NCBI GenBank assembly: GCA_041659905.1
Contig: JBAZXK010000002.1
Span: 201,832-265,831 of the forward strand
Length of the DNA stretch: 64,000 nt
Reading direction: 5' to 3'
From: Patescibacteria group bacterium
GTDB lineage: Bacteria > Patescibacteriota > Kazan-3B-28 > UBA10110
Shown here: one piece after another, positions 47,792 to 48,548 of the stretch
How the letters are laid out: each line of letters starts with the position of its first letter
Position numbering within the stretch: the first letter of the stretch is position 1
Translations under genes and position numbers: made by a program
Notes under the pieces: generated by a model
The model's input: only the letters and a program-made list of their open reading frames with translations
What the model was told of the DNA's origin: nothing
The model's database searches: none

Positions 47792-47866
47792 CGGGGTGTA
47801 GCGCAGTGGTAGCGCGCATCGTTCGGGTCGATGAGGCCGGAGGTTCGAATCCTCTCACCCCGACCA
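47792..47866 (+). tRNA. tRNA-Pro (CGG)
   Basis: cggggtgtagcgcagtggtagcgcgcatcgttcgggtcgatgaggccggaggttcgaatcctctcaccccgacca. Loop TTCGGGT. Confidence 0.85.
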
Positions 47867-48048
47867 CAAAACTTTTATTCATCAGAGATGGATGGAAGTT
47901 TTGTGATTGTGTTTATGAGATTCGAACCATGGGAAAGGGGTCGGGAAAACGGGAGTTTTCCCGCAGTGGAGGCAACCTGCTAATATGTTATTAGCAGGTG
48001 TCGGAACCGCAAGGGTCCGAGGAGGCATGAGGTAGCCCGAATGCCGAC

Positions 48049-48075
48049 AGGTTCCATATCCTCTCACCCCGACCA
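48049..48075 (+). other. Degenerate duplicate of the tRNA-Pro 3' end (T-arm/acceptor/CCA), possibly an att-site-like remnant
   Basis: aggttccatatcctctcaccccgacca versus tRNA aggttcgaatcctctcaccccgacca: 2 mismatches. Confidence 0.5.
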
Positions 48076-48081
48076 AGCCAT

Positions 48082-48548
48082 ATGAATCAATCAGAAGAAT
48101 ATCAAAAAGAAGTTTTAGTATTAGCTAAAAAAGCCTTCCGGAAAAAGAAATTCCGGTAGGTGCTATTGTGATAGATAAATCCGGACAAATTATCGGTAGG
48201 GGATATAATTTAGCCCACGCCAAAAAAGATGTTACCGAGCATGCCGAAATTAGAGCCCTCCGGCAGGCCTTCAAAAAGACGGGTGATTGGCGATTGGACG
48301 ATTGCCAGTTAATAGTTAATCTAGAACCATGCTTGATGTGTCTGGGCGCTATAGCTAATGCGCGTATCAAAGAAGTAAGTTATTTTTTAGCTGATCCCCA
48401 ATTCGGCTCGGTCGAAAGTCGCTTAACTAAAAAACAACTGACTAAACTATTTCCGAAACTGATCATAAAAAAGATAAACGACGCTGGAGAGACTAAGCAA
48501 TTATTACAAGATTTCTTTAAAGAATTACGTATTAAAATATATATTTAA
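48082..48548 (+). CDS. tadA: tRNA-specific adenosine deaminase TadA (N-terminus interrupted by a 1-nt frameshift near 48141-48152)
   Basis: HAEIRALRQA and NLEPCLMCLGAI (zinc-binding). Upstream ATG 48082 encodes MNQSEEYQKEVLVLAKKAFRKK, which continues as EIPVGAIVIDKSGQIIGRG only after a frame change. The track ORF starts at GTG 48168. Confidence 0.65.

Follow-up and report, generated by a model that had tools for sequence, protein, structure and literature searches.

The 64,000-nucleotide stretch of Patescibacteria DNA analysed here (contig JBAZXK010000002.1, positions 201,832 to 265,831 of the forward strand; hereafter, the window) carries, between an intact gene for tRNA-Pro(CGG) and the tRNA adenosine deaminase gene tadA, a gene-less insert of 191 nucleotides (nt) bounded by two copies of the tRNA 3' end. 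Comparison with related genomes shows that the insert belongs to a family of miniature non-coding sequences which have a conserved fold, occupy the T-loop/3'-end position of tRNA genes and vary in presence from one relative to another. We consider that this family of Kazan-like Patescibacteria represents a non-autonomous, T-loop-targeting miniature integrative element moved in trans, a reading to which we attach a probability of about 55%, and that integration probably takes place by recombination with an element-borne mimic of the tRNA 3' end. The element was not described in the literature that we searched.

Insertion site and family

The tRNA-Pro(CGG) gene that precedes the insert has the same sequence as the tRNA-Pro of three relatives (L014, L085 and L001; sampled loci are referred to by such numbers throughout) and is recognized as complete with no segment removed. 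Its last 18 nt, ATCCTCTCACCCCGACCA, recur downstream, and the two identical copies, at 47849-47866 and 48058-48075, are separated by 191 nt (47867-48057); the occurrence of an exact 18-mer twice within ~200 nt is far beyond chance. A preliminary description of the window, based on the letters alone, had placed a 27-mer, aggttccatatcctctcaccccgacca, at 48049-48075 and counted two mismatches to the tRNA. The position is correct and the count is not: 18 nt are exact and AGGTTC is likewise common to both copies, with the T-loop 'GA' of the gene replaced by 'CAT' in the displaced copy; the identity block thus measures 18 nt when exact and 26-27 nt, imperfect, when extended. The features of the site are as follows.

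47605-47679, tRNA-Arg(CCT), called by ARAGORN and Rfam.
47792-47866, + strand, intact tRNA-Pro(CGG), called by ARAGORN and scoring 67.7 bits with the Rfam tRNA model.
47849-47866, + strand, repeat copy 1 on the attL-like side, the last 18 nt of tRNA-Pro(CGG).
47867-47903, + strand, left part of the element, starting directly after CCA: an A-tract, a hairpin (17-19 base pairs, bp) and a T-rich tail, ATTGTGTTTA.
47904-47912, + strand, semi-conserved motif TGATTGTGT, flanked by the hairpin and the antisense T arm and recognized by eye.
47917-47928, + strand, antisense T-arm copy, GAG-ATTCGAACC, which can pair with 48050-48065 (helix P1).
47929-47941, + strand, purine-rich joining segment ATGGGAAAGGGGT, near-invariant across the family in two alignments.
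47942-47963, + strand, helix P3, CGGGAAAAC / GTTTTCCCG, with a GGGA loop; 98.8% of alignment cells are paired.
47964-47975, + strand, joining segment CAGTGGAGGCAA, in which GTGGA is invariant and tRNA D-loop-like.
47976-47998, + strand, optional hairpin P4, CCTGCTAATA TGT TATTAGCAGG, present in five of nine copies.
48001-48020, + strand, helix P5, TCGGAACC / GGGTCCGA, with an invariant GCAA loop; three pairs are changed on both sides.
48021-48048, + strand, helix P6, G-GA-GGCAT-GA-GG ... CC-GA-ATGCC-GA-C, with two conserved tandem G.A / A.G steps.
48049-48057, + strand, right end of the element: A-GGTTC, a mimic of the 5' half of the T-stem/T-loop, followed by the linker CAT in place of G57-A58.
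48058-48075, + strand, repeat copy 2 on the attR-like side, tRNA positions 59-76, an exact 18/18 match.
48082-48548, + strand, tadA, a neighbour outside the element.

The segment 47930-48079 has a GC content of 53-60%, against 25-45% in its surroundings, and out-folds all 200 shuffled versions of itself (z = -5.3 as RNA and -5.1 as DNA). The perfect spacer hairpin singled out in the preliminary description is real (cctgctaata/tattagcagg, 47976-47998). An independent assembly of the same organism (ENA ERZ27249449) contains an identical element.

Homologues of TadA place the source organism among the Kazan-like Patescibacteria. The loci flanking tadA were sampled from species-representative genomes and metagenomes, about 25 genomes in all. 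In L014 and L085, the identical tRNA-Pro runs straight into 'agttatATG' of tadA, and in L007 and L011, tRNA-Arg, tRNA-Pro and tadA are likewise tightly packed. The tadA start codon of the window lies at 48082, six bases past repeat copy 2, and the corresponding junctions read 'cca/agccatATG' in the window versus 'cca/agttatATG' in L014 and L085, which places repeat copy 2 at the ancestral distance from tadA. Judging from these alignments, 47867-48075 is a 209-bp insertion consisting of the 191-nt element and an 18-nt target repeat, since the site is empty in L014 and L085 and the downstream repeat of the window stands at the ancestral position. The attL/attR-like footprint of insertion that had been suspected at this site is thereby supported, as two relatives carry the same tRNA-Pro with no insert behind it.

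Searches of 34 related sources by blastn, by nhmmer and with a covariance model, itself built from nine copies, yielded 12 copies, nine of them scoring 114-140 bits and three Asp-linked ones being divergent. They lie behind tRNA-Ser(CGA) (L002, L089 and L099), tRNA-Asp (L002, L086 and L098, with degenerate copies in L001, L012 and L014), tRNA-Lys(UUU) (L085) and tRNA-Pro(AGG) (L007), and the window copy is the sole Pro(CGG)-linked one sampled. Five tRNA kinds are thus represented, namely, Pro(CGG), Pro(AGG), Ser, Asp and Lys, and hits lie elsewhere than upstream of tadA. The 64-kb window itself holds one copy of the core; its other tRNA genes (Asp, Ser and Pro(AGG)) have none behind them. The family is clade-restricted, given that five 20-kb loci of more distant Kazan-like genomes contain no core copy.

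All copies share the same order of parts: an intact tRNA ending in CCA, usually a terminator-like hairpin, a motif resembling TGATTGTGT, an antisense T arm, a conserved hairpin core of 110-170 nt with compensatory changes and CGAC-NGG-TTC, followed by a linker specific to the subfamily, an exact repeat of the last 18-20 nt of the copy's own tRNA and the local flank. In the nine full copies, the inserts measure 149-250 nt and the exact repeats 18, 18, 20, 18, 20, 20, 18, 19 and 20 nt, spanning tRNA positions 59-76 or 57-76 and ending at CCA in eight of nine; the duplication in L099 is 25 nt. The similarity of the cores is independent of the type of tRNA: the window copy and the Asp-linked copy of L086 are 89% alike, as are the Asp-linked copy of L002 and the Ser-linked copy of L089, and the Asp-linked copies are 76-85% alike among themselves. 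Orthologous sites behind tRNA-Ser in L002 and L089 hold different core variants. The downstream repeat tracks a lineage-specific change of the tRNA in L014 (cacttcc in both). Of the possibilities raised in the preliminary description, a small tRNA-targeting mobile RNA or DNA accords with the finding of the same core behind five tRNA kinds, each time with that tRNA's own 3' end repeated; a near-completely deleted element does not, the full copies being all of 149-250 nt, non-coding and conserved in structure through compensatory changes.

The left part of the window copy (47867-47903) has the appearance of a bidirectional terminator. In 8 of the 11 copies compared, a hairpin of this form but of another sequence stands 3' of the tRNA; the empty site in L014 and L085 has none. 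The motif TGATTGTGT has counterparts in TAATTGTGT (L002 and L086), TGGTTGTTT (L085) and TGATTAGTT (L001 and L014). The antisense arm best matches the reverse complement of its own tRNA in seven of nine copies, strictly better in all seven, and in the window and L099 copies it matches only the universal T-loop 10-mer; this specificity was judged by sequence matching, RNA duplex energies being confounded by the likeness of all T arms. At the right end, the form '...GGTTC CAT' is seen at Pro, Ser and Asp tRNAs together with an 18-nt repeat, and the form '...GGTTC TAG CGAAGCG' at Asp, Ser and Lys tRNAs together with a 20-nt repeat. The right end (GGTTC and linker) belongs to the element, because each linker form recurs at different tRNAs; L012 has the GGTTC end as well, at a tRNA-Gly whose own T loop contains no GTTC.

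A minimal hairpin, 'GGATGAGAACC-GCCGCAAGGC-TAGGTTCGTCC', was noted ~60-100 nt 3' of tRNA-Ser in L013, L106, L169 and L170. It comprises an antisense arm, a GCAA loop and a T-arm mimic and may be a deletion derivative of the family.

The conserved core

Helices P1a (GAACC/GGTTC), P3, P5 and P6 were tested on the nine-sequence alignment against 500 shuffles. Standard pairs occupy 93.3% of cells versus 85.6% after shuffling, and 11 pairs are changed on both sides versus 5.7; none of the 500 shuffles reaches the observed percentage paired, the number of both-side-changed pairs or cells, or the covariation score, and pairing falls to 29-55% once the partners are slid against each other. Further pair types are not more numerous than in the shuffles (314 of 500 reach the observed value). 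The three core helices covary. In P3, both-side changes affect two pairs, with loop insertions in L086 and L001; in P6, which includes the invariant GGAGG and CGAC, they affect five of eight pairs (GGCAU/AUGCC, GGAGU/ACUCC, GGAGC/GCUCC, GGCGU/ACGCC and GGCAG/CUGCC). P1 (GAACC/GGTTC) is paired in 93% of cells and shows one double change, in L089. The optional hairpin P4 carries three unrelated sequences among the copies, that of the window being exactly that of the Asp-linked copy of L086, and is absent from the Asp-linked copy of L002 and from L007, L089 and L099. RNAalifold pairs the GGGGT of the joining segment 47929-47941 with the acceptor 3' strand in repeat copy 2, using many G-U pairs, an assignment that is unsettled. 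We infer that the + strand, which is the tRNA strand, is the folded one, since the G.A steps become C.T on the opposite strand and the GGGA and GCAA loops are invariant.

The sequence of the core is weakly tRNA-like (z = 2.5-4.6 versus Pro, Gly and Thr tRNAs), with pieces that recall the acceptor (GGGGT), the D loop (GTAGTGG) and the T arm (GGTTC). At the gathering score, the core of the window matches nothing in Rfam, and searches of Rfam 15 with E up to 10 gave no match inside 47938-48075; the cores of eight relatives match nothing with E up to 5. Chance microRNA matches (<20 bits, E >= 0.67) extend from the hairpin into the antisense arm.

Several identities were considered for the insert and rejected. 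RNase P RNA (suggested by 'GGAAAG...GACAG'), transfer-messenger RNA, signal recognition particle RNA, 6S RNA, YrlA, T-box and ribozymes found no Rfam match. A coding insert is contradicted by indels between copies that are not multiples of three and by the lack of a conserved open reading frame (ORF). An old copy of tRNA-Pro riddled with hairpins was suggested by the likeness of GGGGT, GCAGTGG and GGGTCCGAGGAGGC to tRNA-Pro, and these motifs are kept behind Ser, Asp and Lys tRNAs.

Mode of integration and rival explanations

According to the recombination reading, the element would carry a mimic of the T arm, acceptor strand and CCA, and would undergo Campbell-type recombination with the tRNA gene within an identity block of 18-20 nt, catalysed by an enzyme supplied in trans from outside the window. 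The tRNA gene would retain its own T loop and take its 3' end and terminator from the element, and the original tRNA 3' end would be pushed downstream and joined to the aberrant T loop of the element; an excised circle would bear the junction ggttccat-atcctctcaccccgacca-caaaac. By forming helix P1, the antisense arm and the displaced T arm would restore the T arm as a duplex within a folded single strand, be it DNA or RNA, and loop positions 56-58 would bulge out; by analogy, such a structure would resemble the folded sites of the CTX phage and of integron cassettes. For mycobacteriophage Ms6, an integration core of 26 bases with strand exchange in the 7-base T loop has been described (PMC1762012).

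The recombination model would explain why the aberrant T loop always lies in the displaced copy, why foreign alleles can occur there and why arrays form. Downstream remnants of a different natural tRNA allele are found in L012 and L089 (Gly) and at the first cassette of L169 (Ser), with other cargo in all three, and L169 contains an array composed of tRNA-Ser, a cassette, a repeat, a GIY-YIG cassette and a repeat. The foreign-allele remnants fit recombination at an element-borne site better than simple duplication by a staggered cut.

A number of observations weigh against this reading. The protein scan, which covered 45 of the 49 window ORFs of at least 100 amino acids (aa), including all the flanking ones, and two GIY-YIG frames, revealed no recombinase, transposase, reverse transcriptase or nuclease gene in the element or in the 45 ORFs. 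Neither a circular junction nor a strain-level empty site was recovered, and movement is unseen. Sampling was confined to the loci around tadA in about 25 genomes, and the control for the scan of 3'-end repeats was weak, comprising only about a dozen tRNAs outside the clade. With regard to the fold, wobble counts are symmetric (G-U 6 versus A-C 5) and give no independent sign of an RNA form, P1 is not formed in minimum-free-energy folds of either RNA or DNA, and its complementarity is automatic if both arms are copies of the T arm. Finally, the Campbell model requires that 18-20 nt match each new tRNA beforehand, so that perfect repeats at five types are explained more easily by target duplication. 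The same holds for the single copy at Pro(CGG), whose antisense arm is unmatched.

Three further lines of evidence were examined. A strain-level look-up by exact protein gave one identical filled assembly and two Logan contigs that stop at 47862 inside the tRNA; it was uninterpretable and was not used. A phage, plasmid or viral origin was rejected after collections of viruses, phages and plasmids gave no match to the element, and an invertible promoter switch between the inverted T-arm copies was rejected because 12 of 12 copies have the same orientation.

The antisense arm might even programme the choice of target: the folded strand, DNA or RNA, would display a T-arm copy to a recombinase or nuclease of the host or acting in trans, and a change of the arm would retarget the element. 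We regard this extension as speculative and rather doubtful; if true, it would amount to base-pairing-programmed, tRNA-directed integration in ultra-small bacteria, akin in concept to bridge-RNA or OMEGA-type guidance and to the folded site of the CTX phage, with a new scaffold and target class.

The main rival to the recombination reading is target duplication, in which an enzyme acting in trans cuts the top strand within the T loop, 3' of position 56 or 58, and the bottom strand just past CCA, after which the linear element is ligated in and gap filling duplicates 18-20 nt. It accounts directly for perfect repeats at five tRNA types with a length set by the subfamily (18 nt with CAT and 20 nt with TAG), and the sole Pro(CGG) copy, whose antisense arm is not yet matched to Pro, looks as it would after a recent jump. 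Small GIY-YIG nucleases encoded beside tRNA genes could be the staggered-cutting enzyme: such genes adjoin tRNAs in the window (56415-56651) and in L001, L003, L008, L084, L087, L095, L103 and L169, and GIY-YIG cassettes lie between a tRNA and its 3'-end repeat in L103, L095 and L169. However, plain duplication does not predict that the repeat is sometimes that of another allele (L012, L089 and L169), and characterised GIY-YIG homing enzymes leave 2-nt overhangs, as in SegB (PMC2330249), rather than staggers of 18-20 nt. Moreover, the ~80-90 aa GIY-YIG proteins match in Pfam only the catalytic domain and, weakly, T5orf172, and the 5'-side duplications beside GIY-YIG genes range from 11 to 48 nt. 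On balance, we consider target duplication unlikely, albeit the best of the alternatives.

The insert might instead be a host-useful, tRNA-linked small RNA, possibly tRNA-like, which is co-transcribed with the tRNA, excised by tRNA-processing enzymes and occasionally spread, in the manner of the RtT repeats. On the tRNA strand, the conserved helices, the invariant GNRA-type loops (GGGA and GCAA), the tandem G.A steps and the purine-rich junctions would all suit an RNA, as would the tRNA-likeness of the core (z up to 4.6), the 3' repeat, which has stayed identical to the tRNA even where the copy is old and divergent, as in L014, and the copies lacking a terminator (L099 and L007), which must be co-transcribed with the tRNA. 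The tRNA-derived small RNA gene proposed in the preliminary description is weakly supported, in that some of the sequence is tRNA-like, whereas no tRNA or Rfam model matches it. A function of this kind sits poorly with presence and absence differing between close relatives at every tRNA site, with different core variants at orthologous sites (tRNA-Ser of L002 versus L089), with copies that are decaying or contain extra palindromes (L001, L012, L014 and L086) and with the terminator-like hairpin that separates tRNA and core in most copies. The small RNA, which is compatible with mobility, seems to us an improbable explanation of the family.

Spread through RNA, either with the antisense arm acting as a group I-style guide or by reverse transcription with a template switch onto the tRNA 3' end, appears highly improbable. 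Reverse transcriptases stop at the modified base m1A58, and group I introns have an internal guide sequence that pairs with both exons; here, the repeat begins exactly after A58 and ends at CCA, the mature RNA end, the repeats as a whole lie at 59-76 or 57-76 with a CCA end in eight of nine copies, and the antisense arm, located directly 5' of the core, extends across the insertion point. On the other hand, no group I, group II or ribozyme model matches, the core is smaller than a group I intron would need to be, the tRNA is uninterrupted, and the linkers CAT and TAGCGAAGCG are inherited with the element rather than being untemplated additions. No reverse transcriptase was found in the scanned window ORFs; an RVT_3 match at 56743-57171 coincides with an RNase H match in a 142-aa protein, which we read as RNase HI. 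The presence of self-splicing introns in patescibacterial tRNA genes counts in favour of an RNA route, and the reported absence of group II introns from this phylum counts against it (PMC13011429).

Least credible of all are the ideas that the insert is what remains of a larger, degraded island or prophage, or that it acts in cis on tadA as a leader or promoter. The former could appeal to the direct repeats of a tRNA 3' end, the classic footprint of islands, and the latter to the position of the insert immediately upstream of tadA. Both are contradicted by the sequence comparisons, in which twelve equally small copies have one conserved core in common, with no coding remnants, and occur at loci unrelated to tadA, relatives appear to express tadA directly behind the tRNA, with no insert, and the insert has no promoter-like site and brings a terminator-like hairpin instead. 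An arrangement conserved in relatives as a leader or promoter, considered from the outset as the observation that would speak against mobility, is not what they contain, the site being empty there and the insert residing at other, non-tadA tRNAs.

The integrative element favoured here resembles several known systems in part. As in the T-loop class exemplified by Ms6 (PMC1762012), a reconstituted tRNA stands on one side of the insert and a displaced repeat of the tRNA 3' end on the other, the T loop is critical, and the identity block from the T arm to CCA covers 26 bases in Ms6 and an imperfect 26-27 here. Unlike the phages and islands of that class, the element is 191 nt long, with no integrase or other gene; the T loop of the displaced copy is altered (CAT for GA), so the overlap is not identical, and this recurs at other tRNAs; there is an internal antisense T arm, and one core family occupies at least five tRNA species.

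The CTX phage, other integrative mobile elements exploiting Xer (IMEX) at dif and the attC sites of integrons do without a recombinase of their own and use folded single-stranded sites. The element likewise encodes no recombinase, conserves structure over sequence and occurs in tandem cassette arrays (L169), and, by analogy, its inverted segments ~100 nt apart could fold into an imitation of the duplex target with an unpaired central bulge. It differs in its target, a tRNA T arm and not dif or attI, and the folded form is hypothetical rather than a minimum-energy prediction.

Miniature inverted-repeat transposable elements are, like the family, shorter than ~500 bp (149-250 nt here), non-coding, multi-copy, hairpin-rich, variable in presence and presumably mobilised in trans. 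By contrast, the family strictly targets one structural position of tRNA genes with a repeat of 18-20 nt instead of 2-10 bp, its inverted repeats are copies of the target and lie internally on the left, its outer left end is a variable hairpin, and no parent insertion sequence is known.

The RtT repeats (Rfam RF00391) behind Escherichia coli tyrT are units of ~170-180 nt, each ending in the last ~19 nt of the tRNA with CCA. The likeness is that of a unit 3' of a tRNA closed by a copy of the tRNA 3' end including CCA; RtT units, however, are in tandem at one locus, whereas the element is dispersed over many tRNAs and genomes, and the RtT model gave only 15.6 bits (E = 5.9) over the tRNA and its upstream flank (47720-47866), not over the insert.

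SegB is a free-standing GIY-YIG homing endonuclease of the tRNA cluster of phage T4 (PMC2330249). Relatives and the window also have GIY-YIG genes amid tRNA clusters with duplicated tRNA pieces, and in both cases a functional tRNA copy makes up for disruption of the resident one; unlike SegB and the GIY-YIG cassettes, 47867-48057 has no endonuclease gene. Group I introns located in patescibacterial tRNA genes, found with group I covariance models and nearly all of subgroup IA, interrupt the anticodon loop (e.g. at position 35/36) and need splicing (PMC13011429). They share with the element the phylum, the kind of host gene and the nature of a structured non-coding insert, but the element leaves the tRNA intact, lies at the T loop/3' end and matches no intron model. 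As for retroposons resembling short interspersed nuclear elements, the tRNA-likeness is weak (z = 2.5-4.6) and the repeats are always the tRNA 3' end, not random sites. Compared with the systems nearest to it in kind (the T-loop class, the miniature transposable elements, the elements with folded sites and the RtT repeats), the element lacks an integrase, lacks outer terminal repeats accompanied by a short duplication and matches no model.

Other cassettes at tRNA genes and biological significance

The surroundings of tRNA genes in the window and its relatives contain further small insertions. In the window, two features lie next to each other.

56335-56411, - strand, tRNA-Pro(AGG).
56415-56651, - strand, a GIY-YIG gene of 79 aa (Pfam 2e-16), ending 3 nt before tRNA-Pro(AGG).

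An 11-nt copy of the 5' end of this tRNA, ACGGGGTGTAG (56700-56690), and a palindrome, TTCTGCTGTACAGCAGAA (56689-56672), lie 5' of the gene, and the same layout, a 5' tRNA fragment with palindromic insertions, a GIY-YIG gene and an intact tRNA, is also found in L001 (twice) and L084. GIY-YIG cargo between a tRNA (Asp or Ser) and a 3'-end repeat was located at 983-1245 in L103, 1837-2304 in L095 and 10532-11066 in L169. The first cassette of L169 measures 200 nt and is closed by the repeat of another tRNA-Ser allele, followed by the GIY-YIG gene and a repeat; L095 also has four tandem repeats of 37 nt, each of which closes with part of the tRNA 3' end. A second GIY-YIG gene of the window (31874-32080, - strand) lies away from tRNAs and is flanked (to 31740 and 32160) by inverted and tandem copies of the motif TTCAGGATGACG.

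A second conserved element directly follows the CCA of tRNA-Arg and tRNA-Gly and has the form 'GTCTTCGC-hairpin-CTACGCCTGGCTYYGCC...AAGCGAAGACTGCCCT'. It has no Rfam match and is present twice in the window.

47680-47720, GTCTTCGC-hairpin element.
53546 to ~53477, - strand, GTCTTCGC-hairpin element.

The same element stands behind Arg, Gly, Asp and Pro tRNAs in L001, L010, L087, L090, L091, L093 and L102. Resident tRNA genes have in some cases been replaced by another allele (L002, 2560-2910; L012, 1056-1140; L089, 1700-1875): in L002, 5' and 3' pieces of the old tRNA-Arg flank a quite different tRNA-Arg(CCT), set in an inverted repeat, and in L012 and L089 there is a new tRNA-Gly allele, with the 3' end of the old allele remaining downstream. 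Tiny palindromes, CCTGCCTGCCGGCAGGCAGG and TTCTGCTGTACAGCAGAA, recur inside tRNA remnants and core copies (L002, 2581-2601 and 2835-2855; L001, ~20-45; L085, ~805-822; and near tRNA-Ser in L006, L088 and L090) and may constitute a separate class of very small insertions.

The reading frame of tadA in the window is shifted in an A run at ~48142-48147 (region 48135-48150), which counts five residues (A5); in L167 (ERZ27249449; otherwise 99.9% identical), the run is A6 and TadA is intact, with 155 aa. A homopolymer sequencing error would account for the frameshift, as would a strain-specific inactivation just 3' of the insertion. The anticodon AGG (A34) of tRNA-Pro is kept across the clade (L003, L007, L009, L102 and L169-L174). 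A tRNA with A34 other than Arg(ACG) is unusual in bacteria and would need deamination to inosine, and the TadA encoded nearby presumably deaminates A34 of tRNA-Pro(AGG). In L007, a sub-threshold match to 6S RNA (4701-4843, - strand; 34 bits against a gathering score of 46.4) adjoins tRNA-Pro(AGG).

Textbooks associate insertion at tRNA 3' ends with large islands and prophages that have an integrase of their own. Here, a unit of ~190 nt that contains no gene but has a conserved fold leaves the same footprint at five tRNA species, and its hosts have genomes below 1 Mb and could hardly afford the loss of a single-copy tRNA. If the element is mobile, the tRNA genes of these bacteria would be landing pads for several kinds of tiny cassettes, including the core described here, GIY-YIG genes and palindromes, and the family would offer a small system, ready for comparative genomics, in which to study target recognition without an element-encoded protein. 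For annotators, the lesson would be not to take 'tRNA fragments' or GC-rich structured spacers in Patescibacteria for decaying genes.

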